Assembly (NCBI RefSeq): GCF_051058965.1 | Contig: NZ_CP183924.1 | Direction: 5' to 3' (one strand) | Source of the DNA: Corallococcus exiguus | Lineage (GTDB): Bacteria > Myxococcota > Myxococcia > Myxococcales > Myxococcaceae | Length of the DNA stretch: 31,688 nucleotides | Part shown: positions 5,833 through 19,053 of the stretch, one piece after another | Position numbering within the stretch: position 1 is the first letter of the stretch | How the letters are laid out: the number at the start of each line of letters is the position of its first letter | The notes under the pieces: model-generated | What the model was told of the DNA's origin: nothing | The model's input: only the letters and a program-made list of their open reading frames with translations | Databases searched by the model: none | Program-made: the position numbers and the translations under genes

Positions 5833-6063
5833 GGACATGAGCGCGTCCATCAGCGCCGTGGGCGAGTGCTCCCCGTCATCCAGGGGGGAGGAGTCGAGGA
5901 AGGCCAGACCCGAATCGCCACCGAGTGCTTGGTGCAGGGCTTCAGCCTGTGGACGGCTCGCATCTCGCGCGTAGGAGATGAAGACGGAATGGAAGCGCGG
6001 AGGGGTCACTTCCGATGGATGTCCCACCTCACTCCTTGAATCCAGCGGAACCTGGGTGGCCAT
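5833..6063 (-). pseudogene. TIR domain remnant (N-terminal ~55 aa of a TIR fold only, degenerate afterwards)
   Basis: Minus-strand ORF 5662..6063 contains RFHSVFISYARDASRPQAEALHQALGGDSGLAFLDSSPLDDGEHSPTALMDALMSAR. This gives the start strand FISYARD, alphaA, and a FLD...L..GE loop of a TIR, but then degenerates into RMMPSWPSSWPCRPQARR and runs into the 3' end of the CHAT gene. I read it as a truncated or frameshifted TIR gene fragment. Confidence 0.4.
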
Positions 6064-6154
6064 ATTGAACCCACCGGCCAGCCAGGTTCAACAAGGCACT
6101 GGCATGCATTCCGCTCGCGGAATGCGCGTCAGCCCCGAAGGATATTCCGCCCCC

Positions 6155-9100
6155 ATGGACACCGACAGAAAGACCCTTTTCCTCAGCGGAACGCGTCGGG
6201 ACCTGAAGCCCTTCTTCCTGGCCGCGAAGCGGGCCTTCGAGGAAGAACTGCCTGGCTATCAGGTGGTGACGATGGAGAGCCTGACTTCGGAGGACATCAC
6301 CAGCGAACGGTGGAGCCACCGCGAGGCCGCCACACGAGACCTGTTCGTCGGGCTCATTGGCCGGTATTTTGGCACCATCCGGGGAGAAGGCCCCTCGCTG
6401 ACAGAGCAGGAGTACGACGCAGCCGGGCGTGCTGGCGTCCACCGGCTGATGTTCCTGACGAATGCAGGCGAACCGGACGTCATCGCAAGCCAGGACGACA
6501 GTGCCCGGCGCCGGCTGGAGGAGTTCCGTGCGCGGATCCAGACCATCGTCTGCAAGGAGATCTCCACTCCCGAAGAGTTCGCCACCTCAGCCGTTCAGGC
6601 GGTCCGGGAGTGGGAACGCCGGACCCTGCACGGGCTGCTGATGTCGGCGAAGGAGTTCGCCAACTCTCCCGAGTTCTCCTCCCCAGACAGCCTGATGAGC
6701 CATGCCCATGCCTACATTGATCCGGGCGCGCCGGGGCGGGCCGTGGAGGAGTTCCTCGCCTCCCAGCAGCGCATCCTGGTGCTGCATGGCGCCTGGGGGC
6801 GCGGCAAGTCGCGAGTGCTGTTCGAGAGCAGCCGACGCGAACTTCCCATGGAGCTGAGATTCTTGAAGCGGGACGAGGAGCTCTCACATCAGCGGCTCAA
6901 GGGAGTGTCTGGCGAGCGCTATGCGCTGGTGGTGGATGATGTGCACCAGCGCTCCAACGACCAACTGAGCGCCCTGCTGCTCTTCCTCCAGAACCGGGCT
7001 CCGGAGGTGAAGCTCATTGTCACGACGCGAACGAACCGGCGGCAGGAGTTCGAGGAACGGCTTCGCGGGCAACGCTTCGCCTCCAGAGTGATCCGCCGTT
7101 TCGAGGTTCCTCTGCTGAGCGACAAGGAACAGCGGCAACTCATCCAGGCCATCCTGGGTCGCAAGGACGAAGAGCTCGCCTACAGGCTGGCGAAGCGCAC
7201 CCGAGGAAACGCGCTGGCCACGGTTCTCGCGGCCCGGAGCATCCGGAATGGGGCAAAAGTCCTCGGTGAGATCGAAGGTGAGGACTTCGAGGATTCCATC
7301 ATCGAAGGCTTCTTCGGCCTCCTGCTTCAGCAGGCTGGAAATAGTGAGGATCGACACCAGCATCTCAAGCAGCTCATGAAGCTGCTCGCCGTCGTGGGAC
7401 CGTTCCGCCCCGGCAACGCGGAGCAGATGGACGCCCTGACCGGGTTCCTGAAAACTCATCCGGATCGCCTGTCCAACGACCTTGATGCACTTGAGGTCGC
7501 AGGGCTCATCTCCCGGCACGGTGGGCTGGTTCGCGTCCCCGTGGATGCCGTCGCCGAGCACCTCGTGGTTGACGCCGCGGTGAACTCACGTGGCGAGTCG
7601 ACGCGCTACATCGAGCGGGTCATGAACGAGCTCGCCCGTCCCTTCCTGGGAAACATCCTCCGCAATCTCGCGGCGGCGGACTGGGACGTGGCGTCCCCCA
7701 AGAGCGTTGCGAGCGTGACGCGTGGGGTGTGGCACGTCCTCCCGACGCTGTTCGAGCGCCTGCCCTACGTGCAGCAGGAAGGCATGCTCGAGGCCGTGGC
7801 GGACATCGCACCGCGGTACCCGCCCGCCGCCCTGAGCTTCGCGGAGTGGGTCGTCGAATCGGGACCGCACCTGATGGCGCGAGAGGGGCCCTACCTGGAC
7901 TTGATGAGGAGCATCGTGCGGCGCCATGTCACCCGGCTGCTCAGAAGCGTGCTCAACGAGCCGTTGTGCGTATCACGGGCGTGCGACCTGCTGTGGAAGT
8001 GGGCGGAGCCCGAGTCCCCCGACAGCAATGGGTGGCCGGAGAACGCGGAGCACATCCTGTCGGAGGCGGGCAAGTACCGGTGGACGAGATCCATTCCGTC
8101 ATATGAGGCATTCGTTACCTGGGCTGCGTCGCGCGGTGACGGCGAGCGGAGGATCCCGACTCCTCGGCTGGCGAAGTACCTGCGACCGCTTCTCCACCAC
8201 GAAGTGGAGCACAGTTGGTCAGACGGTGAGACCTTCACGCTCTCGGAGATGGGCCTGCCGTATGCGCCTTTCTCCGCACTGCGGAAGCGTGTGATCGACC
8301 TGCTCATTCACCTCGCCAGCGAGGGTGGAATCGAGGACACCCATCGAGCACTAGTGGCGCTGGGGGATGCGCTTTCGGAGCCACGGGGCGCCTTCGGCAG
8401 GAAGGTCACAGACGAAGAACGGAGTGCGTGGGCTCCGGAGCAGCAGTACGTTCTGGAACGGTTGAGAACATTCCGTGGCAAACGGCGTAATCGTGTCGTC
8501 GACCTGTGCATCGTGGAGGAGATCGAGTGGTTGGCGAAACATGCCTCGGTGTCCTCCATTCGCGCCCTCGCGTGGGACTTCCTCAATGAACTCCAAGAGG
8601 CACTGACCGGCACGCTCGAACTGGCACTCGTCGCGAGATGGAAGCTGGGCGAAACGCAGGAGGTAGGCGCCAGGAGGATTGAGGGCCTTGTCCGCGCAGC
8701 GGCCCAGCAACTCATTGAACCTCTTGTGCCTCCCCAGGAGGCGCTGGAAGAGCTGAGAAGGGTTTCCCTGGAGCTCGTCCAGGCAGGAAAAAATCCAAGA
8801 GTCGTCAACCTCTTCGAGGCAGTCGCACGGACAAGCCCGGAGCATGGAGGCATCTGGAGCCGAGTGCTGCTGAGCCAGCCCGGGCACCTCCTCCGGCCCT
8901 ACGCTCACGTGCTTGCCCGAGGCCTCCTGCGTCCCTCTCCCGAGGAAGGAAAGGCGCTCTTCGTCAGCATCCTCGATGATGGAAGCGCGGACCTGCTACG
9001 AAACCTCAGCCTTTGGAGGCTCGGTGGCGACGTCTTCGATGAGAAGACCCTCGCCGTCCATCTGAACCGGCTCATGCGTCACCCGGATGCCCGTGTGCGT

Positions 9101-9955
9101 GAGGAGGCTTTCCACCAGATTCGGGGCCTCGATGAGTTGCCCGCTGGCGAGCGGGCCCGACTGCTCCTGGACTATCCGTTGGCTGAATTCCCAGGCTCGA
9201 CCAAGGACTGGGCTGCGGCCGTTGATAACGGCTTCTATGCCCTGTACGGGCATGCCGAGTTGGAGCGGCTCGCAGTCCAGTTGAGAAGCCCGCCCAAGCT
9301 GGAGTACTGGGGGTTGAAGCTCTTGGAGCGGCTCGCCGGGGATGTTCCCGCCGCCGCGGCGGACACCCTCCTCGCGCGAGTCCAGGATCCCGCGGTGGAT
9401 GCACTCGAACCTGGCTCTCACGAATTTCCCGTGCTTGCCAGGCTCCCGGCTGCCGAGCGTCAACGCGCCCTGTACACGCTGGGCGAGCTTTTTGAGCACG
9501 AGAACCCGCACACACGGTTCCACGCCAGGCGTTTCTTCTCCCTGCTCCATCGGAGCGATCCGGCTTCTGCCAGCGTGGTCCGGAGTCGCTGGCTCGAATC
9601 AGGAACGCCTTCCGATGTCGAACGAGCGCTGGGAAGCTTCGATGCCGCCGAACCTGAAGAGCTGTTCGACCATGAGGCTGACGTCACCGCCCTGCTGCGT
9701 GCTGCCGTGAGCCTGGGCCAGGAATCCCTGGAGAACGCCATGGCCATCCTGACCGGTGTCGCGATTCACGGAGAACGGCAGGGCAGCCCGGGCGAGCCCT
9801 TCCCGCGCGACGTCGCCATCCGCGATAGGGCACGCGGGCTTGCGGAGAAGTACGCACAGGGAACGGTGGAGGGGAATTTCTATCGCGAGGTCGCGAAGTC
9901 CATGGACAACGCGATTCAGCGCCGCATGGAGAGGGACGCGGAGGAGCACGTTTGA
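6155..9955 (+). CDS. DUF4062 - STAND (NB-ARC-like) P-loop NTPase - HEAT/ARM repeat protein
   Basis: The ORF is open from ATG 5978 (1325 aa). The recognisable DUF4062 domain begins at ATG 6155: MDTDRKTLFLSGTRRDLKPFFLAAKRAFE...TMESL...LIGRYFGTI...SLTEQEYDAA...LMFLTN. A GAAGGA lies upstream of 6155, while the GGAG before 5978 directly abuts the ATG, so I favour 6155 as the start. Walker A ILVLHGAWGRGKS, Walker B YALVVDDVHQ, and KLIVTTRTN (the hhhTTR of NB-ARC). The remaining 900 aa are helical repeats of HEAT type (LMRHPDARVREEAFHQIRGL, HENPHTRFHARRFFSLL). The stop TGA at 9953..9955 overlaps the TTG that opens the next ORF. Confidence 0.8.
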   Translation: MDTDRKTLFLSGTRRDLKPFFLAAKRAFEEELPGYQVVTMESLTSEDITSERWSHREAATRDLFVGLIGRYFGTIRGEGPSLTEQEYDAAGRAGVHRLMFLTNAGEPDVIASQDDSARRRLEEFRARIQTIVCKEISTPEEFATSAVQAVREWERRTLHGLLMSAKEFANSPEFSSPDSLMSHAHAYIDPGAPGRAVEEFLASQQRILVLHGAWGRGKSRVLFESSRRELPMELRFLKRDEELSHQRLKGVSGERYALVVDDVHQRSNDQLSALLLFLQNRAPEVKLIVTTRTNRRQEFEERLRGQRFASRVIRRFEVPLLSDKEQRQLIQAILGRKDEELAYRLAKRTRGNALATVLAARSIRNGAKVLGEIEGEDFEDSIIEGFFGLLLQQAGNSEDRHQHLKQLMKLLAVVGPFRPGNAEQMDALTGFLKTHPDRLSNDLDALEVAGLISRHGGLVRVPVDAVAEHLVVDAAVNSRGESTRYIERVMNELARPFLGNILRNLAAADWDVASPKSVASVTRGVWHVLPTLFERLPYVQQEGMLEAVADIAPRYPPAALSFAEWVVESGPHLMAREGPYLDLMRSIVRRHVTRLLRSVLNEPLCVSRACDLLWKWAEPESPDSNGWPENAEHILSEAGKYRWTRSIPSYEAFVTWAASRGDGERRIPTPRLAKYLRPLLHHEVEHSWSDGETFTLSEMGLPYAPFSALRKRVIDLLIHLASEGGIEDTHRALVALGDALSEPRGAFGRKVTDEERSAWAPEQQYVLERLRTFRGKRRNRVVDLCIVEEIEWLAKHASVSSIRALAWDFLNELQEALTGTLELALVARWKLGETQEVGARRIEGLVRAAAQQLIEPLVPPQEALEELRRVSLELVQAGKNPRVVNLFEAVARTSPEHGGIWSRVLLSQPGHLLRPYAHVLARGLLRPSPEEGKALFVSILDDGSADLLRNLSLWRLGGDVFDEKTLAVHLNRLMRHPDARVREEAFHQIRGLDELPAGERARLLLDYPLAEFPGSTKDWAAAVDNGFYALYGHAELERLAVQLRSPPKLEYWGLKLLERLAGDVPAAAADTLLARVQDPAVDALEPGSHEFPVLARLPAAERQRALYTLGELFEHENPHTRFHARRFFSLLHRSDPASASVVRSRWLESGTPSDVERALGSFDAAEPEELFDHEADVTALLRAAVSLGQESLENAMAILTGVAIHGERQGSPGEPFPRDVAIRDRARGLAEKYAQGTVEGNFYREVAKSMDNAIQRRMERDAEEHV

Positions 9956-10008
9956 CGCCTGAGCCGGTATCCGCAATACGTTCGCCACGGCGCACGGGAG
10001 GAGCAGCG

Positions 10009-10833
10009 ATGCGGGTGTTCATCAGTTGGTCCGGGGAGAGGAGCAGGGCCGTGGCCACGGCCTTGAAGACGTGGCTGTCGGACGTCTTCCACGATGTGGA
10101 GCCCTGGATGTCCGAGCACGACATCGACGCGGGCATGCAGTGGGGCACCCATCTCAGCCAGCAACTGGAGGCCGCGAACTTCGGCATTCTCTGCCTGACG
10201 CCGGACAACCTCGCCTCGCCGTGGCTGCTCTTCGAGGCCGGCGCGCTCTCCAAGTTCATTAAGTCGGCACGTGTCGTCCCCTACAGGCTGGAGCTCAAGG
10301 CGACGGACGTCAGCTTGCCCCTCGCTCAGTTCCAGGGGGTTGATGCGGATGAGTTGGGGACGCTCAAGCTCCTGCAGAGCCTCAACGGCACCCGTGAGGC
10401 TCTACTCACTGACGAACGACTCAAGAAGCTGTTTGACAAATGGTGGCCCGACCTGAAGCTTGCCCTGCAAGCCGTTCCCCCTTCCAGAGGAGTGCCCGCC
10501 CCCAAACGGACCGACAGGGCCTTGCTGGAAGAGATCCTTCAGTTGGTCCGACAGCAGGCCCAGGCATCCACCGATACGCCAATACACAATGAAGACACGA
10601 TCTACGGCCCTCCTCCGACTGACACCTCAGCCGAGTCCCAAAGAGTGCTGAGTGTGCCCTTGCCGCCGAACGAGCCCGGGAACTTGCGCGGGATGCGCGT
10701 ACGCCACGCGCAGTTTGGCCTTGGGACCATTGCTGACGTGGAAGGAGCGGGAGCCAATGCCAAGGTCACGGTGAGGTTCAGTGGGCCAGTGGGTCTCAAA
10801 AGAGTTATCGCCCAATTCCTTCAGCCCGCCTGA
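10009..10833 (+). CDS. TIR domain protein (TIR_2-like) with a small C-terminal domain
   Basis: The track ORF opens at TTG 9952. The better start is ATG 10009, preceded by GGGAGGAG at -7: MRVFISWSGERSRAVATALKTWL...GILCLTPDNLASPWLLFEAGAL. FISWSGE.S and SPW..FEaGal are TIR_2 signatures, and the conserved Glu sits in FEAG. The C-terminal 90 aa (RGMRVRHAQFGLGTIADVEG...VRFSG) are unassigned. Confidence 0.85.
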   Translation: MRVFISWSGERSRAVATALKTWLSDVFHDVEPWMSEHDIDAGMQWGTHLSQQLEAANFGILCLTPDNLASPWLLFEAGALSKFIKSARVVPYRLELKATDVSLPLAQFQGVDADELGTLKLLQSLNGTREALLTDERLKKLFDKWWPDLKLALQAVPPSRGVPAPKRTDRALLEEILQLVRQQAQASTDTPIHNEDTIYGPPPTDTSAESQRVLSVPLPPNEPGNLRGMRVRHAQFGLGTIADVEGAGANAKVTVRFSGPVGLKRVIAQFLQPA

Positions 10834-10885
10834 GTTATTCGCCATCAGGACTACGGCGCTCTTGTGGCCGACATCCACTGCCAAT

Positions 10886-13800
10886 CTACGAAGCGGCCTT
10901 CTCCTCTGACGGATGCTGGTTCGAAACCACTTCGCGTCTGGCTTGCAGTGCGGTCATCAGCCAGTACAGCTCGTCGACGACCTCAACGCTCCACTCCGAG
11001 GTGCGCTCTGCGATGGCATGGCGCAACACTCCGATGCGTACTGGGCGAACCGCGCTACGTGAACGCATCATCCGGATGAATCGGGCACGATCCTCTCTCG
11101 ACTCGAATCGCTCCAGCCACTGGATGATTTCTTCCGGCTCCAGCGCGTTTGCGCCTATCTGCTCGACCTCTTTCCAGAGCTTGCGTCTGCGAAGACGCGC
11201 CGGAAGGCCACGCTTGAACCACACGAATTTAAGCACACACACGACAGCTATCCACACGCCGGAAACCACTATCGCAAGATCCCATTGGCGTAAAAAGAAC
11301 CACCATGCCAACGATAGCATCAATCCGACACCCGGCAGGACGACAATCAAAATCCGCCCCCAAAGCCGCCATACAGAGTTTTGAACCAACCCAAGCCAAA
11401 ACGGATACAAGAACCAGGCTGTCGTCCACTTCCCCTTGCGGCAGGCGAGATAGACATAGGCATCCCAAGAAGCCACTGCGAATGCCATCGAGATAGCCAA
11501 GGACCCGGGGATTCCAACCAGTGCCGCACTGCACAGAAACGCCATGCCCTCCAGTCCCGCGCGCATTGCAACCATGAAGTCAAAGTTCTCCGGATCTTCC
11601 CCGGGGGCGCTCCCCTTTGCTGATTCTCTGTGCCTGTGCCAAGGCAACTGAACCAACGCCCAGAAGACGGACATGATAAGCCCAAACGGCCTGGTGCTTA
11701 CTCCCGGCACGATCGAGGCAGGAGGCTCGTATTGGAGGGACAGCACCAACGTGACCAGCAACCATCCGATGGACAAGCAGCTCCGCCCCCACGCAGCCCG
11801 TCGGAGCAATTGAACAAGCTGGATGAACCCACCGGAATCCGGCAGACGTGAGACCTCGGCCAACGTGCGGTGCCAGAGCCGCGACAACTGGCCTGACCTT
11901 TCACGCTCCACGAGCATGCCTCTCACCGCATCGGCGATTGGCTCGGGCAGACGCCGAAGCCAGGAGGCCTGCACGTAGGCAACATCTGCCAGCACCTGAC
12001 TCCGGCTGTCGAATGCCGAAATCAGCAAGCCCTCGAGCTCCGGCGCCGGAACGAGCCCTGCCACACTGAGCGCGTCACGCTGATCCACCAAGCTGCCATT
12101 GTTGTATGCGAGGTGGACCAACTCTCCAATCGTATCGCGGAGCGAAGTGGGAACTTCATGGAGGCGCTCGCGCAAGCCTTCCTGGAGAAGCTCGAGTAGA
12201 TGCCGGACGCCATCCGGCCACACTCTGTAGATTCCTCCTTCCAGCGCGTCCTCCTCCTGCGGCTCCGGGGCCGTCGAGGTCTGCTCTTCTGGCCCCTCAT
12301 CATCCGACTGCAAGAGCGCAAGCATATCGTCGAGCGTCGCTTCCGCCTGCGCGATTAGTTCCTCGAAATAGGGGGAACTCGCGGTCTGCAGCAGTACCAC
12401 GCACGTCTCGCGCCAACGGTAATCGGTGAACAACAGCTCCGTGGAGATACGTGCGGGCTCGGCTTGAACCCAGCGAGTGGCGAGGAACTCCTGGAACCGG
12501 CGGTGCACGAAGGCGAACGACGGCTGCCCTTCAGGGGCTGTCCCGCGCTTCGCGAGCCTGAGCTCCCCCAAGACCTCCAGGACGTCGGAGAGCGACTCGG
12601 CTGGCAGAGAACGGCGTCGGAGCGAATCCGCCAGTTCTCCATGTATCGGCTCCATTCCCAGGCCCGTATCCGCCGACATGCAGAAGGCCAGGGCCTCCGC
12701 CGCCTTCCGGACGTCACCCGGCGTGAGCCCGCGTGTCCTGAGCTCTCCCGCGTGATGGGACAGCCGCTGGTCGAGAAATCTGTTGAAGACCTCGTGCTGA
12801 TGGCCGGGAGGCTTGTTCTCCTGCGCGAACCACGCGCAAAGCATCGCCAACAGGAGCGGATTCGTTCCGAAGACCGGCAGCCCCTCCGCCGACGAATCCA
12901 GCCAGCCCAGCAACTGCTCCACCTTCCGGCCATAGTGGAGGTAGCGCTTCGTCAGCCTGGCACGCCGCGCATCATCGAGCGGGAGGATCCGGTATTTTGT
13001 CCACCCGAACCGGGTGGGCCCGCGAAAGTGGCGCGACCCCACCATGGCACTGCACCCAGGGGTCCGGACGATGAAGTCGTTCAGCGCATATGCGTAATCC
13101 CGGACCGCATTGTCGTCTCCGGTCGAGGACAATACGGCCGGTATCTCGTCGAAGGCATCAAAGAGGAAGAGCCACTGCCGGTGACTTGCAGGTCTGCCGA
13201 GCAGGTCACGAAGGAGCGCTCCATCTGCTCCCAACGAATCAAGAACGAACTGTCGGACAGCGTCAGCGTCGGGTCTGGCCTTCGGGCGAAAGCCGCGAAG
13301 TGGGAGATAGAGCACGATCCTGAAGGGTTGACGGCCTCTCTTCCGGACAGTCTCCATCGCCTCCTTGAGGAGTTCCCGCGCGACCTGTCTCAGGACAACG
13401 CTCTTTCCTGCCCCTGGAGCACCTTCGAGGATGATGAACCGCTCCCGAGAGCGGACCAACGCCCGCGCAAGCCGCTGCTCCCTGCGCAGGCGGCGTTCTT
13501 CGAACAGCCGAGGGAGCAGGGTCTTCTGCTCCTCGGACTCCACCTCGGCTTCGAGGTCGGTGAAGTGAGACTCGCGCCAGGACACCTCCACGGGAGCGGA
13601 CCAATTCTCTTCCCAATCCAACCGCCGGATGCGTTCCGCGTGGGATTGGAGGAACTGGAGCATTTCCGGCGGAGACTGCTTCTGGGCCTCCTGCTTGGAC
13701 ACGAGCCCACGGATCCATTGGGTGAGCTCGGCGAGTTTTCCTTGGATTTCCTCCGGACTCCGCCCGCTCCAAAGCGGGCTCCCGCCGTTCGGCCAGAGAT

Positions 13801-14143
13801 TGCGCGCTTCGAGCCCGTCAACCGCCTTCCAGTCGCAAGGTGAGAGTAGCACTGGGACGAGCCGAAGCGCTTCCTGACGGCTGCGCTCCAGCAGTCGTGG
13901 CAGCTCGTACTTCTGGATGAATTCCGAGCCCAAGAAGTTCTCGGAGATGAGCAGGACCGCGATGCTCGCGCACTCGATAGCCTCGCGAATCGCAGGACGC
14001 CAAACGTCGCCTGGATCCATCCGCTGATCGACCCATATCCGCGCGAGGCCCTGACTCTCCAGGACCCGAAGCTGTCTTACGACCTTGTCGAGTGCCTCCG
14101 AGTCCTGGCGTGAGTAGCTGATGAAGATGAGTGGCGAGTCCAC
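10886..14143 (-). CDS. TIR - NACHT NTPase - C-terminal 6-helix transmembrane domain protein (membrane-anchored NLR-like)
   Basis: The ORF is open to 14614, but its first 157 codons are low-complexity and antisense to an IS3 orfA. The TIR begins at a GTG (complement of 14141..14143): VDSPLIFISYSRQDSEALDKVV...VLLISENFLGSEFIQKYELP. NACHT motifs follow: ILEGAPGAGKSVV (Walker A), LFLFDAFDEI (Walker B), AMVGSRHF, GTNPLLLAML, and FAFVHRRFQEFLATRWV (the F.H...QEFLAA box). The last 300 aa carry six hydrophobic segments (CLSIGWLLVTLVLSL, FGLIMSVFWALVQL, MAFLCSAALVGIPGSLAISMAFAV, TTAWFLYPFWLGLV, ILIVVLPGVGLMLSLAWWFF, LAIVVSGVWIAVVCVLKFVWF) and a basic tail. The start codon is uncertain. Confidence 0.8.
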   Translation of the reverse strand: MDSPLIFISYSRQDSEALDKVVRQLRVLESQGLARIWVDQRMDPGDVWRPAIREAIECASIAVLLISENFLGSEFIQKYELPRLLERSRQEALRLVPVLLSPCDWKAVDGLEARNLWPNGGSPLWSGRSPEEIQGKLAELTQWIRGLVSKQEAQKQSPPEMLQFLQSHAERIRRLDWEENWSAPVEVSWRESHFTDLEAEVESEEQKTLLPRLFEERRLRREQRLARALVRSRERFIILEGAPGAGKSVVLRQVARELLKEAMETVRKRGRQPFRIVLYLPLRGFRPKARPDADAVRQFVLDSLGADGALLRDLLGRPASHRQWLFLFDAFDEIPAVLSSTGDDNAVRDYAYALNDFIVRTPGCSAMVGSRHFRGPTRFGWTKYRILPLDDARRARLTKRYLHYGRKVEQLLGWLDSSAEGLPVFGTNPLLLAMLCAWFAQENKPPGHQHEVFNRFLDQRLSHHAGELRTRGLTPGDVRKAAEALAFCMSADTGLGMEPIHGELADSLRRRSLPAESLSDVLEVLGELRLAKRGTAPEGQPSFAFVHRRFQEFLATRWVQAEPARISTELLFTDYRWRETCVVLLQTASSPYFEELIAQAEATLDDMLALLQSDDEGPEEQTSTAPEPQEEDALEGGIYRVWPDGVRHLLELLQEGLRERLHEVPTSLRDTIGELVHLAYNNGSLVDQRDALSVAGLVPAPELEGLLISAFDSRSQVLADVAYVQASWLRRLPEPIADAVRGMLVERERSGQLSRLWHRTLAEVSRLPDSGGFIQLVQLLRRAAWGRSCLSIGWLLVTLVLSLQYEPPASIVPGVSTRPFGLIMSVFWALVQLPWHRHRESAKGSAPGEDPENFDFMVAMRAGLEGMAFLCSAALVGIPGSLAISMAFAVASWDAYVYLACRKGKWTTAWFLYPFWLGLVQNSVWRLWGRILIVVLPGVGLMLSLAWWFFLRQWDLAIVVSGVWIAVVCVLKFVWFKRGLPARLRRRKLWKEVEQIGANALEPEEIIQWLERFESREDRARFIRMMRSRSAVRPVRIGVLRHAIAERTSEWSVEVVDELYWLMTALQARREVVSNQHPSEEKAAS

Positions 14144-14285
14144 GGTGCCGCACAGCGTACATTGTTCCGCGGCCTTCGGTGCACGCCAGCGCCGGGAACG
14201 GTGGAGGGGAGCTTCTATCGCTGGGTCGCGAAGTTTAGCGTCACCCACTTCTGTGGACGCCCCCGATGTGATGGAAGGGTGTTCG

Positions 14286-14597
14286 ATGTCGGAGCGCGAG
14301 AAGAAGAGGCGGCCGCGACGTAGCTTCAGCCCGGAGTTCAAGTCCGGGCCGGTGAAGTTGGTGCTGGAGGAGAGCAAGTCCGTTGCGGAGGTGGCGAGGG
14401 ACTTGGACCTGACGGAGACGGCCTTCCGTCGGTGGGTGGAGCAGGTCCGAACGGACCGGGGCCAGGGCAAGCCAGGCGCCCGCACCAGCGAGGACCGGGT
14501 GGAACACTCCCAGTTGCGCAAGCGCGTGCGGCAGCTGGAAATGGAGAAGGAGCGCCTAAAAACTGCGGCGGCCTTCTTCGCGAAGGAGATGAAGTGA
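14286..14597 (+). CDS. IS3-family transposase OrfA (HTH + leucine-zipper)
   Basis: [53 protein letters not shown]...[28 protein letters not shown] is the conserved IS3/IS911 OrfA pattern (R..YS.EFK...V.......VA.......L..WV). GGAAGGG lies 7 nt upstream of the ATG at 14286. The track ORF extends upstream to 14121 with no domain support. Confidence 0.75.
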
Positions 14598-14893
14598 AGT
14601 TCCGCTTCATCCACGTGGAGAATGCATCCCTGTCAGCCGCCTTCCTTTGTCGCCAACTGGGTGTCTCCCGTTCGGACTACTACGCCTGGGCGAAGCGGCC
14701 CGAGTCTCAGCGGCGTCAGCGCGACCGCGAGCTGTCCGAGGAAGTGGCGGCTATTCACCGGCAAAGCCGAGGTACCTACGGCAGCCCCCGTGTCCATGCC
14801 GAGCTGCGCGCGCGGGGCCGCCGCGGCTCGTCATCCACCTGGCTCCGTCGCGAACCAGTTCTTCTCGACACTCGCCTCGGACGTCGAGGCTGA
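14432..14893 (+). pseudogene. IS3-family transposase OrfB, N-terminal fragment (HTH_21 plus the start of the integrase core, then degenerate)
   Basis: In the -1 frame relative to orfA: [75 protein letters not shown] matches the OrfB N-terminus. After ARG it reads [13 protein letters not shown], not the expected V.HKRV.RLM motif, and no DDE core follows. Confidence 0.6.
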
Positions 14894-14937
14894 TATCGCC
14901 GCACACCTCCGCTTGGATTCGGAGCAAGAGGTCTGAG

Positions 14938-17900
14938 TCAGTCGAGCGCGGCCCGCACGTCCCAGATACGCACGACGTGGTCTCCTCCTGCCGTGAGGAT
15001 GCGTCCGCCATCTGGACTGAATCCAACCGAGGTCACCCCACCGGACCGACTGGAAAGGCCCACACGAAGCTCGCGCGCCGCGAGGTCCCTGATGAGCGTT
15101 GTCCCGTCCTCCTGCCCCACCACACAGTGCCGCCCGTCCGGGCTGAAGCTGGCCGCTGTCAACGCCCTCGTCGTTCGAGACGACATGACGATCCCCCCGG
15201 TGTCGGCATTCCAGATGTTCAGGTTGCCATCCGCACCTGCTGTCACAATGCGTGTTCCGTCCGGACTGAAGCTGGCCGCATGGACCCGGCCTTGGTGTCC
15301 CGAGAGGCGGGCCAGATTCCTCCCCGAGCGGACCTCCCAGAGAAGCACGCTGCCACCGTCGCCTCCGGTGACGAGGCGCTGGCCGTCAGGACGGAAACCC
15401 GCCGTGAACACCGCCTCGGTGTGTCCCGCGAACTCCCCGACGTGCTGTCCGGAGGTCGCGTCCCAAAGATGCACCCCGCCATCACCACTCGCGGTGATGA
15501 TGCGCATCCCATCTGGGCTGAAGCTGGCGGCGTAGACCGTATCCAGAGGACCGTGCAGGCGACCTACAGCTTTCCCAGAGGCGACGTCATAGAGCCAGGC
15601 CCACCCAGTCAGGCCCGCCGCGATGATGCGCTGGCCGTTGGGACTGAAGCTGACAGCGAATACTCCACCCGCCGGCTCTCCGGTCATGAGTACCAGGGAG
15701 GCACCGGTCCCCGCATCCCAGAGTTCCACGGAGTTACCATCGTTCCCGGTGACGACCCGCCCACCATCCGGGCTAAAGCTCGCAACGAGGGCATCAGTCG
15801 CCAGCTCAGTGACGAGCCTGGGCTGGCCCCCTCGCTTCCAGGTACGAAGCGCAGAAAGTGAGCCCAGCAACCGCTCCATCTGCTGCGCTGTTTCCTCCGC
15901 CTGGGCATGGCCGATGGAGCGTCGATATTTGACGAGGACTTCCAGCAGTTTCCTCACGCCCTCCGGAATGCCTTGCATTGCTCGCATCTGGCCGAGCCCC
16001 CATGAAGCCAGCGCGATGCCTCGGTCGTCACGCCATGAGCGAGCGACCTCAAGCGCTTCCTCATAGTGCGCCGCAGCCAGACGCGGTCCGTGTTGCTCCT
16101 CCGCGAGCGAGGCAGAGGCAAGCAGGGCATCCACTTCGAGTTGGATGTCCCCTTCGATTGCTGCCTTCGCTCGGGCGCTCCGAAAACCCTCGGCAGCCGC
16201 ATCCTTCCTGCCATCCTGCCGGTCGAGACGAGCAATCATGTAGTCGGCCTCGGCGCTCACCTCCCCATGGGCAAGCTCTTGCTCGGCGATCCTTAGTAGC
16301 AGCGAGTGGGCCTCATCCCAGTCGCCCTGTTCCGACAGGAACCGCACCAGCTTGACGCCCCCCCCTGCCGACGACCCGGGTTTGAAACCCACCCCCATAA
16401 AGGCCTCGCGGCACGACTTCACCGCCTCCTTCCCTTGTCCGAGCTGTGACTGAGCGACGGCTAATTCGAGAAGGAAGAACGCTTGTTCCAAACCGTACAC
16501 ACGGGTGTGCGATGATTCCACCAGAGGCTTGAGCAATTGCTCCCTCTCGCGTGGCGTCCAGCGCAGGCGGAATAGCCACGGGACTTGCATCACCGGAGCG
16601 CGGAGGAGCGACGGCACTCTGTCGGGAGGTCCATGTTGAATCCACCATCTGAGCGCCCTGTCGATGTTCAGGCGCTCCTCGTCGAGCGCCATGATAGCCG
16701 CAGCTCGCTCCTGCCCCTGGGGCTTATATCTTTCAGTAAGGCCGGTGAAGAACTCCAGGAAGTATGTGGCATGCCGCAGGGCCGCCTTCTTCAGGTCAGG
16801 AAACTCCTGCTCAGGCTCCGTAATCAGCCGCACCGGCCACCACAACGTATAGCGACCCGCTCCAGCGACACGAATCAGGCCCGCCTCTAGCATTCGCTGG
16901 GCTGTCAGCGGCCCCCAGTACCCTTCACTCGGCTCCTTTGCAGGAGGGCTCGTCTTGTCGAGTACCACCACATCGGCGGCTCGCAGGTCAAAGCTCTCCG
17001 GAAACACGGCGAGCCAGCGGGCACGATTCAACAGTGCGGCATAGAGCCCGATTCGAGTTCCCGATCTCACCCTGGCCAGCACCGCGCCAATTTCGCGCAG
17101 AGGTGTGGCGAGAAAATGGCAAATTTCGGCGAGCTCAACTGCCACGTCACCCACCCCTGGTGCGACTTCGGTCAGCAGGTGTACCGCGGCGAGGGGCGTA
17201 AGCGGCGCGAGCCTTATTGACTCGAACCTTTCTTTGATGAGGAGCGGCGCACGGGAAGTCACCATGAGGAACCCGGAGCCCCCCTGAGGGCGCAGCTGGG
17301 CGATTTCCTCCGAGATGTCACTGGAGCCCCAGCGCCACGTATCTACGTCTTCCAAGACGAGCGCCAGCCGTCGCTCGGACAGCAGATAGTGGAAGTGCGA
17401 GAGCCAGTCCCTCCGAGAACCGACCTGCTCTGGCGCAATCGCCTCAACCACCCTCCGTGCCACAACCTCTGCAGACATCACCGGACCGTTCGGAAGTCTT
17501 TCGATCTGAAAGCACCCATAGGGAAAATCGTGAGCTATCCGTGCGAGCACCTGCCGGGCCCATTGCGTCTTGCCGACGCCGGGCTCGCCCGTGACGTTGA
17601 TAAAAACAACTCCACCGCGAATCAACCTCCCGAGCAAATCGGCCTGCTGCTCGTGCAGCATGGGGCCATCCTCAGGCGGTGGAAGCAGGAGCAACGCAGC
17701 CGGCTCGGCGGGGGCGATGAGGTACTCATCTCCCTGCAACGTGCGCAGGCGCAGAAAGCCGGACACGAAGGGAAGCTGGAGGTGCTCTTGCGGGCGGAAC
17801 TCGAGTCTTCGCCATCGCGTCTCGTGGAGGGGAAACTCGTTCAGCAGCACAAGCAGGTGCTGAATAGTGAGTTGCTCGTTCTCGGGCCTGGCCGTGAGCC

Positions 17901-19053
17901 ATTGCCTCGCGGGCACCAGCGAGATCATCCGCTCCCAGGGAGGCTCTTTGGACGCTCGCTCCGGGAGTACGTACACCGGAATGAAGAGGACTTCCGAGCG
18001 CCGCGTCTTTAGCTGTTCCTCAATGGAGGAGACCTCGTCGGCGAAAGCGCGGGATTCGAGCGCACTTTCGGAGACCAGCAGGACGAAGACATCCGCCTGG
18101 ACGAGCCAGCCCTCGATTTGTGCCCGCCACGAAGCCCCCGGCTTGAATTGCAGCGCTTCGAGCCCCGGGAAGACCTGGTGTTGCGTCCGCTGCAGCCCTT
18201 CCCGGATGGCATGGGCCAACTGCGGCACGGGGCCCCCCGAGGCCACGTAGCTGATGAAGATGCTCCGTGGATGCGGTGACGCCGCCTCCCCCTCTCCGCC
18301 ATCCGCCATGTCCAGCACCAGCGGCTCGGTTCGGGGGACCTCGATGGTGGTCTCCGCTCGGCCGGCCACCGGGCCCAACTCCACGAAGCCAGGGAACAGC
18401 CTCACGCCCACCTGGACTCGCTCCAGCCCCTGTGTGGCCATTCCCGCCATCCACTCGGGCACGGCCCCTGATGGAGGTGAAGCTGGCAGCAGATCTCCCC
18501 GGAGACGCGCCCGTGCCGCGACCGCCAGCAGACGCCCCTCGTCCAGCTCTCGCAGCTCGGAAGGAATGCGAGCACTGGCGCCCGCGGCCCAGTGCGCCAG
18601 GCTCGTCTTCTCGTTGCCGAAGAGCTCCGCCACCGCCGAACGCAGAAGCCAGCGCGCTCGCACAGGAGCGTTGGCGTCACCGCTGAACTGAAGGTAGTTG
18701 AGTTCTTCTTCCAGGCGCAGCGCCGGTGAGAGCCCCACATGGGCCTCCCTGGTGATGCGCCAGGCCTCGTCGTAGCGCTCACCTCCCCGCGCCACGAGCC
18801 TTTCGCGCAGGATTGCCCCCACGCCCTGTACGAACACGAAGCCTTCGGGGCCGCGGAAAGCGACGAGGCGGCCCAGCCACAGGTCGGCCTCGACGGACGG
18901 CTTCGCTCCAGGCAGCAACTCCAGGCGCAGCCGACGCAGCAGCAGGGAATCCACCCGGACCGCGAACGAGGCCAAGCATGCCAGCTCGAAGGCCTGGGGC
19001 TGCTCCTGAGCGGTCTCCTCGACCAGCAGACGCGCGGCCATGAGCGTCGTCAT
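14938..19053 (-). CDS. Third component of a MoxR-vWA-beta-propeller ternary system: N-terminal ~110-aa adaptor-like domain - TIR - NB-ARC/STAND NTPase - TPR - 7-bladed WD40 propeller
   Basis: 1371-aa ORF with ATG at 19053 and GGAGGAGG 8 nt upstream, inside the end of the vWA gene. TIR: RSIFISYVASGG...VFVLLVSESALESRAFADEV. NTPase: VVFINVTGEPGVGKTQWARQV (Walker A), LALVLEDVD (Walker B), LMVTSRAPLL. A helical TPR-like middle follows. The C-terminus has seven SFSPDG...W(D/N) WD40 units (FSPDGGRVVTGNDGNSVELWD ... FSPDGGRILTAGGDHVVRIWD). The N-terminal MTTLMAARLLVEETAQE...LWLGRLVAFRGPEGFVFVQGV region is unassigned. Confidence 0.85.
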   Translation of the reverse strand: MTTLMAARLLVEETAQEQPQAFELACLASFAVRVDSLLLRRLRLELLPGAKPSVEADLWLGRLVAFRGPEGFVFVQGVGAILRERLVARGGERYDEAWRITREAHVGLSPALRLEEELNYLQFSGDANAPVRARWLLRSAVAELFGNEKTSLAHWAAGASARIPSELRELDEGRLLAVAARARLRGDLLPASPPSGAVPEWMAGMATQGLERVQVGVRLFPGFVELGPVAGRAETTIEVPRTEPLVLDMADGGEGEAASPHPRSIFISYVASGGPVPQLAHAIREGLQRTQHQVFPGLEALQFKPGASWRAQIEGWLVQADVFVLLVSESALESRAFADEVSSIEEQLKTRRSEVLFIPVYVLPERASKEPPWERMISLVPARQWLTARPENEQLTIQHLLVLLNEFPLHETRWRRLEFRPQEHLQLPFVSGFLRLRTLQGDEYLIAPAEPAALLLLPPPEDGPMLHEQQADLLGRLIRGGVVFINVTGEPGVGKTQWARQVLARIAHDFPYGCFQIERLPNGPVMSAEVVARRVVEAIAPEQVGSRRDWLSHFHYLLSERRLALVLEDVDTWRWGSSDISEEIAQLRPQGGSGFLMVTSRAPLLIKERFESIRLAPLTPLAAVHLLTEVAPGVGDVAVELAEICHFLATPLREIGAVLARVRSGTRIGLYAALLNRARWLAVFPESFDLRAADVVVLDKTSPPAKEPSEGYWGPLTAQRMLEAGLIRVAGAGRYTLWWPVRLITEPEQEFPDLKKAALRHATYFLEFFTGLTERYKPQGQERAAAIMALDEERLNIDRALRWWIQHGPPDRVPSLLRAPVMQVPWLFRLRWTPREREQLLKPLVESSHTRVYGLEQAFFLLELAVAQSQLGQGKEAVKSCREAFMGVGFKPGSSAGGGVKLVRFLSEQGDWDEAHSLLLRIAEQELAHGEVSAEADYMIARLDRQDGRKDAAAEGFRSARAKAAIEGDIQLEVDALLASASLAEEQHGPRLAAAHYEEALEVARSWRDDRGIALASWGLGQMRAMQGIPEGVRKLLEVLVKYRRSIGHAQAEETAQQMERLLGSLSALRTWKRGGQPRLVTELATDALVASFSPDGGRVVTGNDGNSVELWDAGTGASLVLMTGEPAGGVFAVSFSPNGQRIIAAGLTGWAWLYDVASGKAVGRLHGPLDTVYAASFSPDGMRIITASGDGGVHLWDATSGQHVGEFAGHTEAVFTAGFRPDGQRLVTGGDGGSVLLWEVRSGRNLARLSGHQGRVHAASFSPDGTRIVTAGADGNLNIWNADTGGIVMSSRTTRALTAASFSPDGRHCVVGQEDGTTLIRDLAARELRVGLSSRSGGVTSVGFSPDGGRILTAGGDHVVRIWDVRAALD

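Follow-up and report, generated by a model that had tools for sequence, protein, structure and literature searches.

The 1085-aa protein encoded at positions 10886-14143 of the window, the 31,688-nt stretch of Corallococcus exiguus DNA analysed here, appears from its sequence to be a rare TIR-carrying variant of a catalogued family of membrane-bound bacterial NACHT proteins. We propose, with a rough probability of 0.45, that it is a stand-alone inner-membrane STAND (NLR-type) immune protein in which the C-terminal module receives the signal and the TIR domain is a swapped-in effector. In the NLR/STAND immune receptors characterised from bacteria, plants and animals, ligand sensing is the task of soluble domains, either repeats or globular. 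The domain order given in the preliminary description, TIR - NACHT - multi-TM - basic tail, proved real, with the membrane block occupying the position of the LRR, WD40 or TPR sensor.

Gene start and domain architecture

In the ORF list, the mechanical ORF spans 10886-14614 (-) and encodes 1242 aa. The true start is assigned to the GTG at 14143, giving 1085 aa, because the first 157 aa of the longer ORF lie antisense to an IS3-type transposase orfA (HTH_Tnp_1, E 2.5e-14), the 1085-aa product is 100% identical over its full length to an NCBI Corallococcus exiguus 'TIR domain-containing protein' (P0002), and the start agrees with that of the closest relative, P0003 ('MAPPLIFISY'). The preliminary coordinates, 10886-14143, imply this same start; the 'residues 900-1242' mentioned there follow the numbering of the long ORF and become 743-1085 once the true start is used. 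Translation of the 3255-nt frame shows no interruption and all catalytic motifs, and an intact full-length relative exists, so the gene is not a pseudogene, a possibility that had been raised earlier. The features of the locus are as follows.

10886..14143 (-), whole gene of the TIR-NACHT-6TM-tail protein, 1085 aa; GTG start 14143, stop codon 10886-10888, coordinates checked by translation
13724..14131 (-), TIR domain, aa 5-140 (Pfam TIR_2 and PADLOC ThsB-type TIR)
13904-13906 (-), codon of the putative catalytic Glu80, which aligns with the Glu of PdTIR and TIR-STING
13457..13723 (-), linker helix and family-specific pre-NACHT motif W..HFTDLEAEVESE, aa 141-229 (nearly invariant columns)
12464..13456 (-), NACHT module from NBD to winged helix, aa 230-560 (Pfam, motifs, Foldseek)
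13400-13423 (-), Walker A GAPGAGKS, aa 241-248, verified by translation
13145-13174 (-), Walker B WLFLFDAFDE, aa 324-333, verified by translation
12476-12517 (-), WHD His box FAFVHRRFQEFLAT (H547), verified by translation
11804..12463 (-), helical domain between NACHT and membrane region, aa 561-780 (AF2 and phmmer alignment)
11741..11797 (-), TM1, aa 783-801; Kyte-Doolittle 1.5, Wimley-White -8.0 kcal/mol, family hydropathy peak, AF2 helix 770-804
11639..11695 (-), TM2, aa 817-835; Wimley-White -9.0 kcal/mol, family hydropathy peak, AF2 helix 817-842
11516..11572 (-), TM3, aa 858-876; Kyte-Doolittle 1.5-1.9, family hydropathy peak, AF2 helix 851-876
11444..11503 (-), TM4, aa 881-900; Kyte-Doolittle 1.9, conserved W893, AF2 helix 880-902
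11354..11443 (-), loop or interfacial segment between TM4 and TM5, aa 901-930; conserved G904/W910/P914 motif, 5 Lys/Arg
11294..11353 (-), TM5, aa 931-950; Kyte-Doolittle 2.2, Wimley-White -13.6 kcal/mol, AF2 helix 924-950
11216..11278 (-), TM6, aa 956-976; Kyte-Doolittle 2.6, Wimley-White -9.4 kcal/mol, AF2 helix 954-994
10889..11209 (-), basic juxtamembrane stretch and conserved four-helix tail, aa 979-1085 (K/R count, AF2, conservation)

The TIR domain matches Pfam TIR_2 at 55.7 bits (cut-off 28, E 8.6e-15) and the ThsB-type TIR among the PADLOC models at 9e-18. Its E80, in SEFIQKYEL, aligns with the Glu residues of PdTIR (3H16) and oyster TIR-STING (6WT6), which we take to be catalytic; the domain thus seems to retain the putative catalytic Glu and to belong to the NAD-cleaving type. 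The NACHT module recognised earlier from its motifs is borne out by Walker A and B, by a Pfam match (PF05729, 35.8 bits against a cut-off of 26.7) covering profile positions 1-164 of 167, and by the best Foldseek matches of the AF2 model in the PDB, namely NLRC4 (4kxf), NLRP3 (8swk) and NOD2 (5irm), with E-values of 2e-9 to 4e-8. Among 96 family members, G241, P243, G244, G246, K247, D329, D332, E333 and the sensor Arg R371 are invariant and H547 is nearly so, as are the pre-NACHT columns F194, L197, E198, A199, E200 and E202. With all nucleotide-binding motifs in place and an NBD-HD1-WHD fold like that of animal NLRs modelled at pLDDT 75-92, the NACHT ATPase is predicted to be intact. The box formerly written as 'F.H..QEFLAA' does contain the His box, which in that rendering had one spacer residue and the last letter wrong. 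The domain that follows is all-helical in AF2 (pLDDT 80-93 outside an acidic loop at 615-639) and ends in a conserved junction, A.L.RL, with R766 and L767 conserved; phmmer aligns all family members up to about aa 780-800.

The membrane region and its protein family

Six C-terminal segments reach Kyte-Doolittle values of 1.5-2.6 in 19-aa windows, and favourable windows on the Wimley-White octanol scale number 124 in aa 761-1000 versus 9 in aa 1-760. AF2 builds the C-terminus as six long helices plus four tail helices with moderate confidence (pLDDT 65), the TM region itself lying at pLDDT 40-79, i.e., low to moderate. The hydrophobic pattern is the same in homologues, six is the modal segment count in 161 family members, and the six hydrophobic helices named in the preliminary description are accordingly upheld. 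Since the positive-inside rule holds in the query (18 Lys+Arg inside versus 1 outside) and in 91% of 64 six-segment homologues, the block behaves as a membrane domain; it is predicted to be one rather than the buried repeat of a soluble protein, an alternative that had been named for checking, and its topology is probably N-in/C-in. W893 is kept in 87% of 197 family sequences, and the segment aa 901-930 carries G904, W910 and P914 (conserved in 83%, 86% and 74% of family sequences, respectively). This segment scores -13.2 kcal/mol on the Wimley-White scale and is modelled by AF2 as non-helical with low confidence; it is probably a cytoplasmic loop and could instead be a seventh membrane segment, making the count six or possibly seven. 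Within the membrane, the family sequences contain no conserved charged or polar residues that might form a ligand site or pore, the conserved residues being W, G, P and A.

Past TM6, the tail begins with KRGLPARLRRRK, and 8 Lys/Arg fall within the 25 residues directly after TM6 (aa 977-1001). The tail is modelled at pLDDT 70-87, its residues R1027, E1046, D1057 and E1058 are conserved in 70-88% of 197 sequences, and no family in Pfam covers aa 979-1085. This conserved helical tail of ~100 aa sits where Table S1 of Kibby et al. places NCH3 in clade-8 proteins of similar length (about aa 930-1017; bioRxiv 10.1101/2022.07.19.500537), and by position it is probably that domain.

The family was defined by a profile of aa 762-1085, searched against 1.84 billion proteins clustered at 50% identity. 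The search returned 312 cluster representatives at E<=1e-3 and 150 at E<=1e-10, more than expected by chance; the family thus comprises at least 312 clusters (50% identity) from many phyla, with at least 210 loci in species-representative genomes of Chloroflexota, Cyanobacteria, Acidobacteriota, Actinomycetota, Myxococcota and Pseudomonadota. Almost all of its proteins are about 1000-1100 aa long, with the TM+tail module at the C-terminus behind the same NACHT type as in the query, with which the module is paired almost exclusively. Most of the 96 full-length representatives start with a single N-terminal TM helix. The database check suggested earlier, for TIR-NACHT proteins with C-terminal TM segments, did yield such proteins: a TIR is found in only ~5 of roughly 200 members examined, as TIR_2 in the query, P0003, P0013 and L077 and as an insertion into the NACHT domain in P0062, while P0011 has an N-terminal DUF4062. 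The TIR therefore looks like a rare swap for the usual N-terminal TM helix, a point that the preliminary description missed; the TM+tail part would be constant and family-defining, and the N-terminus swappable. The canonical members have no recognisable soluble effector, which is also compatible with a membrane-acting effector role for their TM parts. Between the query and P0003, which is 59% identical overall and has the same full architecture, identity is 72% in the TIR, 78% in the NACHT, 59% in the helical domain, 32% in the TM region and 43% in the tail, making the C-terminal module the fastest-evolving part in this pair.

'TM regions' are a listed sensor class of bNACHT proteins (Kibby et al., Cell 2023; bioRxiv 10.1101/2022.07.19.500537), and by pairwise identity and motif the query family appears to match clade 8 of that work. 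The architecture class, presented earlier as uncharacterised, is hence already catalogued. A clade 8 member cloned by Kibby et al., bNACHT13 (WP_087776413.1, Klebsiella quasipneumoniae), shares 34% identity with the query over 289 aa (E 9e-43) together with the clade-specific pre-NACHT motif; the only family member cloned, it has no phage defence listed in Table S2 (bioRxiv 10.1101/2022.07.19.500537). Duganella and Pseudomonas homologues were also found, and clade 8 lists proteins of this kind. The clade 8 proteins and the query have in common the NACHT subtype with the motifs W..FTDLEAEVE.EG and WLFLFD(S/A)FDEIP, a length of about 1000-1100 aa, a C-terminal multi-TM block with a short helical domain after it, and a single-gene organisation. 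They differ at the N-terminus, where the listed proteins have no annotated domain and bNACHT13 starts with one TM helix, whereas the query has no TM helix there but a TIR of 140 aa; the query also lacks the Asp residues conserved in the family at 787 and 986. We treat the missing helix as an effector swap within clade 8 and not as exclusion from it.

Proposed signal reception and effector, and competing explanations

In STAND proteins, the part that is constant within a clade is usually the sensor and the swapped part the effector (Kibby et al., bioRxiv 10.1101/2022.07.19.500537). The TM+tail module is read as the sensor and the TIR as the effector because the constant C-terminus and variable N-terminus carry this signature. 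From the position and constancy of the TM bundle we infer that it may be the sensor; a membrane perturbation would be the signal. By analogy with characterised STAND/NLR and TIR systems, the resting protein would be an ADP-bound, autoinhibited monomer in the membrane, with the C-terminal TM bundle and tail receiving the signal at the repeat-sensor position. Autoinhibition would be lifted by a trigger within or at the inner membrane, candidates being a membrane-inserted phage protein or a membrane change; nucleotide exchange in the NACHT would lead to oligomerisation in the membrane plane, and the gathered TIR domains would act as NAD+ hydrolases or as makers of an NAD-derived product, ending in arrest or death of the infected cell (abortive infection). 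A bolder form, possible if doubtful, is that the six-helix bundle and tail are a genuine intramembrane sensor, which would make these proteins the first NLR-type receptors to survey the membrane itself, oligomerising in two dimensions and, in the rare TIR versions, depleting NAD+. Targets could then be phage holins, injection or superinfection-exclusion proteins, or changes in the bilayer or its potential. If true, this would extend the NLR paradigm to membrane surveillance; if not, a single-gene membrane system this widespread would still merit a defence screen. Most members have no enzymatic effector and thus offer no assay handle; the very few TIR-bearing variants, the query among them, provide a simple readout, NAD+ loss, by which one could search for the trigger and distinguish between sensor, effector and anchor roles of the TM bundle.

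The membrane bundle might instead be the ancestral effector of the family, the NACHT oligomer assembling TM helices into a pore or ion pathway through which the cell collapses; we regard this as rather unlikely. The pore would be built from the C-terminal bundle, the N-terminal helix of canonical members or both. In the query, the TIR would then serve as an additional or substitute effector, with the cytosolic helical domain (aa 561-780), the tail or both as the sensor. That canonical members have TM segments and no soluble effector, and that the charged residues best conserved in the C-terminal module belong to the cytoplasmic tail and not to the membrane part, fits such a role, for which Tmn offers a precedent as a membrane-integrated NTPase that combines sensor and effector and senses through cytosolic arms (PMC13001434). 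The query, however, is unrelated to Tmn/KAP NTPases, with no such PADLOC match; TIR and DUF4062 replace the N-terminal helix and not the C-terminal bundle, which points to the helix as the effector-equivalent part; and TM segments without a conserved polar lining that diverge fastest (32% versus 78% identity in the NACHT) would be unusual for a channel. The same weak constraint, with few conserved columns in the TM helices, would suit a bundle that merely anchors NACHT-TIR at the inner membrane while the helical domain and tail bind a cytoplasmic phage or host protein, as in Avs/bNACHT, and both of these parts are indeed better conserved and modelled at higher confidence. We consider mere anchoring unlikely as well, since the conserved W...G.....WP..P motif and the three-hairpin layout fixed across phyla exceed what anchoring needs, and the TM+tail module is essentially confined to one NACHT type.

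Two further explanations concern the role and the state of the gene. A function in myxobacterial social conflict or developmental cell death, e.g., kin discrimination or a response to toxins that enter through the envelope on contact, is suggested by the Corallococcus host and by an island full of the 'conflict systems of multicellular prokaryotes' of Kaur et al. (2020, PMC7159879); it would fit the enrichment of STAND, TIR and CHAT systems in multicellular bacteria. Members are common among lineages with filamentous or multicellular habits (Actinomycetota, Cyanobacteria, Chloroflexota and Myxococcota), but unicellular Pseudomonas, Duganella, Klebsiella and Stenotrophomonas have them too. To our knowledge, the TIR-STAND proteins tested to date (bNACHT/Avs literature) act in phage defence, and we judge a purely social role improbable. 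Decay of the copy is less probable still. An IS3 remnant (14286-14893) lies about 140 bp upstream of the start and could have removed the promoter, the departures from the family consensus at D787, Y889, P911, D986 and E1064 could reflect relaxed constraint, and P0001, a related copy from a metagenome, breaks off exactly where the TM region would begin; yet the frame and catalytic motifs are complete, P0003 shares the architecture and the R787 deviation, and the IS fragment is itself truncated, hence old, and outside the coding sequence.

Genomic setting and comparison with other systems

The gene is part of a 22-kb island in which there are five further TIR genes as well as CHAT, DUF4062-STAND and MoxR genes; its neighbour at 14938-19053 is of the classical TIR-STAND-TPR-WD40 type. 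No conserved neighbour gene was found across about 65 family loci, and synteny with the P0003 locus stops at the gene borders; judged from these loci, the gene is most likely a single-gene, stand-alone system. TIR STAND/NLR proteins with soluble repeats (TIR-NACHT or TIR-NB-ARC types bearing TPR/WD40/HEAT; plant TNLs, bNACHT09-type and Avs-type proteins) share with it an N-terminal TIR with catalytic Glu ahead of a STAND ATPase and the expected oligomerisation-driven activation of the TIR. They differ in the sensor position, which in the query holds an integral membrane domain and a short tail and no solenoid or propeller; because of this, its oligomerisation would take place in two dimensions in the membrane. 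The PADLOC Avs models gave no match for the query at E<=0.01.

Tmn (YobI/KAP; PMC13001434) is a membrane P-loop NTPase in which binding of a phage protein by the cytosolic arms sets off Mg2+ export. Like the query, it is a membrane-integrated single-protein P-loop NTPase coupling recognition to an abortive-type response, a functional analogy only. Tmn, however, is KAP/YobI and not NACHT, Mg2+ export by the TM part is its effector function, sensing falls to cytosolic repeat arms, and it has no TIR, whereas the query has a NACHT NTPase and C-terminal TM segments. Membership of the query in the Tmn/KAP family was rejected, with no match in PADLOC or Pfam at the thresholds used. Thoeris ThsB, PADLOC 'TIR-TM' and the TIR and TM effectors of Pycsar/CBASS resemble the query in the TIR_2/ThsB-type TIR alone, which in the query is fused to its own NTPase switch. 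Neither a ThsA partner (SIR2/Macro-SLOG) nor a cyclase was found among the window ORFs scanned; with only the TIR matching ThsB and no SIR2 or SLOG gene in those ORFs, assignment to Thoeris was likewise dismissed.

The gene was described earlier as lower in GC than its flanks; its GC is 61.8% versus 65.4% for the window. The low GC3 is nevertheless common to the adjacent immune genes (0.74-0.77 in the STAND and TIR genes from 5978 to 19053 versus 0.80-0.87 further out), and the difference is partly a composition effect, the TM part having 57% GC because of its hydrophobic codons, mostly through codon position 1.

Gene model and soluble domains

Mechanical translation of the minus strand gives an open reading frame at 10886-14614 that would encode 1242 aa from a GTG at 14614. 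This longer version was rejected because its codons 1-157 lie antisense to orfA of an IS3-family transposase (14286-14597; Pfam HTH_Tnp_1, E 2.5e-14) and the extra 157 aa are absent from both the NCBI protein and P0003, the nearest relative; the spurious extension arises because the antisense strand of the IS3 remnant stays open. Translation from the GTG at 14143 yields 1085 aa, identical in sequence and length to the NCBI protein P0002 ('TIR domain-containing protein [Corallococcus exiguus]', encoded on a 10.49-Mb chromosome), and P0003 starts at the equivalent position ('MAPPLIFISY'). The preliminary description had thus placed the start at the real GTG, 14143, and because of this start its residues 900-1242 correspond to aa 743-1085 of the real protein. 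The IS3-family remnant (14286-14893, plus strand) sits between two STAND genes, about 140 bp upstream of the target start codon, and comprises a complete orfA (HTH_Tnp_1) and just the first ~100 codons of orfB (HTH_21).

With only Pfam domains above their gathering scores counted (28 for TIR_2, 26.7 for NACHT), the protein contains TIR_2 (E 8.6e-15, 55.7 bits) and NACHT (E 8.9e-9, 35.8 bits). The full NACHT motif set was found by translation, and the NACHT call made from the sequence alone holds.

Nucleotide-binding motifs of the target protein, checked by translation
Walker A, GAPGAGKS, aa 241-248
Walker B, WLFLFDAFDE, aa 324-333
Sensor Arg, R371
Winged-helix box, FAFVHRRFQEFLAT, containing H547

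Across an alignment of 96 family members, i.e., NACHT proteins sharing the C-terminal transmembrane (TM) and tail module of the query (aa 762-1085), most of the motif positions (the Walker A and B residues and R371) are invariant and H547 nearly so. The AF2 model of the full protein has a mean pLDDT of 70, with 75-92 in the NACHT and helical domain, and its best PDB matches are NLRC4, NLRP3 and NOD2 (E about 1e-9). Glu80 of the TIR domain (SEFIQKYEL) is matched in alignment by a glutamate in PdTIR (3H16) and in oyster TIR-STING (6WT6), the residue responsible for catalysis in TIR NADases. The domain composition is thereby established, and the catalytic and nucleotide-binding motifs are intact.

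The C-terminal membrane module and its family

Kyte-Doolittle averages over 19-residue windows reach 1.5-2.6 near aa 783-801, 858-876, 873-891, 931-949 and 956-974, and the Wimley-White octanol scale gives -4 to -14 kcal/mol at 785-803, 820-838, 875-893, 910-928, 933-951 and 958-976, with 124 favourable windows in aa 761-1000 vs 9 in aa 1-760; the two scales agree that the C-terminal region is membrane-like. AF2 modeling of aa 762-1085 alone, from a 9-row alignment and at moderate confidence (pLDDT 65), produced six long helices (770-804, 817-842, 851-876, 880-902, 924-950 and 954-994) followed by four shorter tail helices. Lys and Arg residues number 2, 3, 5 and 8 in the inside loops and 0, 0 and 1 in the outside loops, a distribution that obeys the positive-inside rule if six TM helices run from N-in to C-in, the likely topology. 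The same bias is seen in the family: six is the commonest count of C-terminal hydrophobic peaks among 161 proteins, and the 64 six-peak sequences have K+R sums of 14.7 inside vs 5.7 outside, with inside exceeding outside in 91%. Hydropathy, predicted helices and charge pattern therefore confirm that, as had been proposed, the position of a repeat sensor is taken by six hydrophobic helices with a basic tail behind them. The TM helices are clearly more than two, homologues retain the signature of a membrane protein rather than of a buried soluble repeat, and a related genome carries the gene with an uninterrupted frame, which argues against a pseudogene.

An aromatic segment, WFLYPFWLGLVQNSVWRLW (WFLYPFWLGL...; aa 910-928, window 11360-11416), holds the family motif W910/P914. 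It is strongly membrane-favourable by Wimley-White and forms a low-confidence loop in the AF2 model. We tentatively read it as interfacial and cytoplasmic (six TM helices, tail inside) rather than spanning (seven TM helices, tail outside), because with a seventh span the tail, which is very basic, would end up on the outside. Comparison of the C-terminal model with PDB folds returned no significant match (best E 0.7), and no Pfam family consistently matched 32 C-terminal modules.

A word-indexed search identified one full-length relative of equal architecture, P0003, which is 59% identical and derives from a 5.5-kb metagenomic contig, together with a dozen NACHT proteins of ~1000 aa at 27-37% identity. 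The latter align by phmmer to query aa ~165-800, and in every one a cluster of hydrophobic segments directly follows the aligned part. Word-indexed searching with the C-terminal half alone gave a single fragment, and with the family alignment one weak match (P0026) and zero new family members. The profile A2, built from aa 762-1085 and eight homologues, was used in an exhaustive search of 1.84 billion cluster representatives. It matched 312 proteins at E<=1e-3, of which 150 also pass E<=1e-10; almost every full-length match is 1000-1100 aa long, with the module C-terminal from residue ~650-700. The family became visible because this exhaustive profile search, unlike the word-indexed ones, reached it. 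The protein is thus no orphan, and its class of architecture is not new.

An alignment-based scan of one genome per species detected at least 210 family loci. Phyla among the matches listed are Chloroflexota, Cyanobacteria, Acidobacteriota, Actinomycetota (Micromonospora, Lentzea, Actinoplanes), Myxococcota (including Archangium gephyra with three copies) and Pseudomonadota (Pseudomonas fluorescens, Duganella). These relatives are distant ones; a single-protein scan of the species-representative genomes found no close relative of the query, and the plasmid collection gave TIR-domain matches only and no family member. Conservation within the module was computed over 197 non-identical sequences.

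Conserved positions of the C-terminal module (197 sequences; query numbering)
Junction A.L.RL, before the TM region
Asp at the start of TM1, aa 787, in 68% of sequences
W893, in TM4
G904, W910 and P914, in the loop after TM4
Asp just past TM6, aa 986, in 75% of sequences
R1027, E1046, D1057 and E1058, in the tail

The two conserved Asp positions mark the ends of TM1 and TM6 on the cytoplasmic side (window 11783-11785 for aa 787 and 11186-11188 for aa 986). The query has Arg at both, and P0003 has Arg at the first and Ser at the second; these are the two members that have no N-terminal TM helix. This pattern, seen in two related sequences only, may hint that the Asp pair contacts the basic flank of the N-terminal helix in canonical members; with so few sequences, we do not claim such a pairing.

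The canonical layout is strikingly uniform: in the majority of the 96 full-length representatives, and in some 65 genomic loci with an intact gene, it consists of one TM helix at ~20-50, Walker A at ~140-160 and then 5-7 C-terminal hydrophobic segments. The stretch from helix to NACHT is common to the query and the family, including the motif 'W.D.RF(A/T)(E/D)LEAEVE.EG', and TIR stands in the query where canonical members have the N-terminal TM helix. An N-terminal TIR_2 is also present in P0003, in P0013 and in the locus L077 (7926-11354). In another retrieved protein, P0062, TIR is inserted after Walker A (aa 218-314) and the N-terminal TM helix is retained; P0011 has DUF4062 in place of TIR. 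TIR is rare in the family, with about 5 carriers in roughly 200 members examined, and, as these layouts show, it came in by more than one route. The C-terminal module is uniform and the N-termini differ; the family therefore combines a constant membrane module with a swappable N-terminus. P0013 bears an extra C-terminal extension of ~450 aa with further hydrophobic segments. The metagenomic P0001 (L001, 24-944) is 65% identical to the query over aa 489-771, its frame stops 23 residues past the soluble/TM junction, and no downstream frame resembles the TM region; in this copy a truncation or rearrangement thus falls precisely on the border between the domains.

Members of this class have been reported before. 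bNACHT13 of Klebsiella quasipneumoniae (1021 aa; Table S2 of Kibby et al., Cell 2023; bioRxiv 10.1101/2022.07.19.500537) begins its printed sequence with a TM helix and includes AENWNDQYFTDLEAEVETEG, GEPGSGKSVALRHLA and WLFLFDSFDEIP; its first 399 residues are 34% identical to the query over 289 aa (BLASTP, E 9e-43). Table S1 groups it in clade 8 with 'NACHT+NCH3' and 'NACHT+DUF2070+NCH3' proteins from Duganella, Pseudomonas, Clostridium, Pedobacter and Vibrio, and for these locates NCH3 (NACHT C-terminal helical domain 3) at about 930-1017, the position of the conserved tail in the query family. DUF2070, annotated by Kibby et al. in one clade-8 protein, has no Pfam match in the query. From sequence identity, motif and layout, rather than from a tree, we conclude that the family probably corresponds to clade 8. 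The class of bNACHT proteins with C-terminal TM regions, and the sensor hypothesis, are thus already in the literature. The TIR-NACHT-6TM-tail combination is rare, and no TIR-bearing protein occurs among the clade-8 rows retrieved from Table S1. Table S2 gives no phage defence for bNACHT13. Apart from Kibby et al. and surveys by the Aravind group, literature searches yielded no characterised TM-NACHT, NCH3 or EruA-type protein, nor a characterisation of any other membrane-bound NACHT; function is uncharacterised across the whole family.

Proposed signal reception and alternative readings

The architecture itself would not surprise a specialist, but the TIR-bearing form gives practical access to the question of how, or whether, control of an NLR-type switch comes from inside a membrane. 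We propose a mechanism modelled on how STAND/NLR proteins and TIR effectors generally behave. At rest, the protein would be an ADP-bound, autoinhibited monomer within the membrane. A signal received via the C-terminal TM and tail module would release autoinhibition, allowing nucleotide exchange and then oligomerisation in the membrane plane, and the TIR domains, activated by proximity, would cause NAD+ loss and growth arrest. We assign this complete chain a probability of about 0.45, and hold the architectural identification alone with high confidence. The C-terminal module is favoured as the signal-receiving part because it occupies the sensor position, because it is clade-defining and constant while the N-terminus is swapped, and because no other part has diverged as fast between the two closest relatives (query vs P0003 identity: TM 32%, tail 43%, NACHT 78%, TIR 72%). 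A constant sensor and a swapped effector are the usual pattern according to Kibby et al. Since TIR and DUF4062 take the place of the N-terminal helix, it is probably this helix, and not the C-terminal bundle, that corresponds to the effector in canonical members.

The membrane parts might instead be the effector, a pore or ion pathway resembling Tmn, where recognition of a phage protein falls to the cytosolic arms (PMC13001434). Such a role would account for the absence of any soluble effector from canonical members; however, the helices are weakly conserved and without polar lining, and the exchanged element is the N-terminal helix, so we consider it possible but unlikely. It is also rather unlikely that the bundle is an anchor only and that the soluble parts sense. 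A role in myxobacterial social conflict or development instead of phage defence, which overlaps mechanistically with signal reception by the membrane module, seems improbable, and a copy silenced or decaying through the upstream IS element very much so, given that frame and motifs are intact.

The surrounding island

Clustering of flanking ORFs around about 65 family loci revealed no conserved partner gene; the most frequent neighbour occurs in 5 loci, which are closely related to one another. The window and the contig of P0003 resemble each other no further than the gene borders, and the target appears to be a single-gene unit. It lies in a conflict-system island of roughly 22 kb (window 440-22201) with six TIR-domain genes.

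Main features of the island
440-1414, TIR gene
1463-2407, TIR gene
3750-5735, CHAT plus TPR-S
5978-9955, DUF4062-nSTAND5
9952-10833, plus strand, TIR plus UvrD-type Tudor domain
10886-14143, minus strand, target TIR-NACHT-6TM-tail gene
14286-14893, plus strand, IS3 remnant
14938-19053, TIR-STAND-TPR-WD40
20020-20970, MoxR ATPase
20984-22201, TIR gene

The product of 9952-10833 is a 293-aa fusion of TIR_2 and a PcrA/UvrD-type Tudor domain; it matches PADLOC 'TIR-TM' at 1e-59 over its TIR part, yet it is free of TM segments. The gene begins 4 nt inside the end of the DUF4062-STAND gene upstream, an overlap suggestive of an operon of these two genes. The MoxR ATPase beside TIR-STAND-TPR-WD40 recalls the arrangement of MoxR-vWA-beta-propeller ternary systems.

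GC content is 61.8% in the target, with a GC3 of 0.735, and averages 65.4% over the window. GC3 is 0.74-0.77 throughout the block 5978-19053 and 0.80-0.87 in genes outside it; the lower GC noted for the gene in the preliminary description thus holds in part, but is a property of the island more than of the gene. The TM part has 57% GC, chiefly from codon position 1 (0.54), owing to hydrophobic codons. Further along, a gene for a 1171-aa Kelch-repeat protein (26667-30182, plus strand; unusual GC values of 0.52, 0.67 and 0.85 at codon positions 1, 2 and 3) lies downstream of membrane glycosyltransferase-like (PMT) and acyltransferase genes and appears unrelated to the island.
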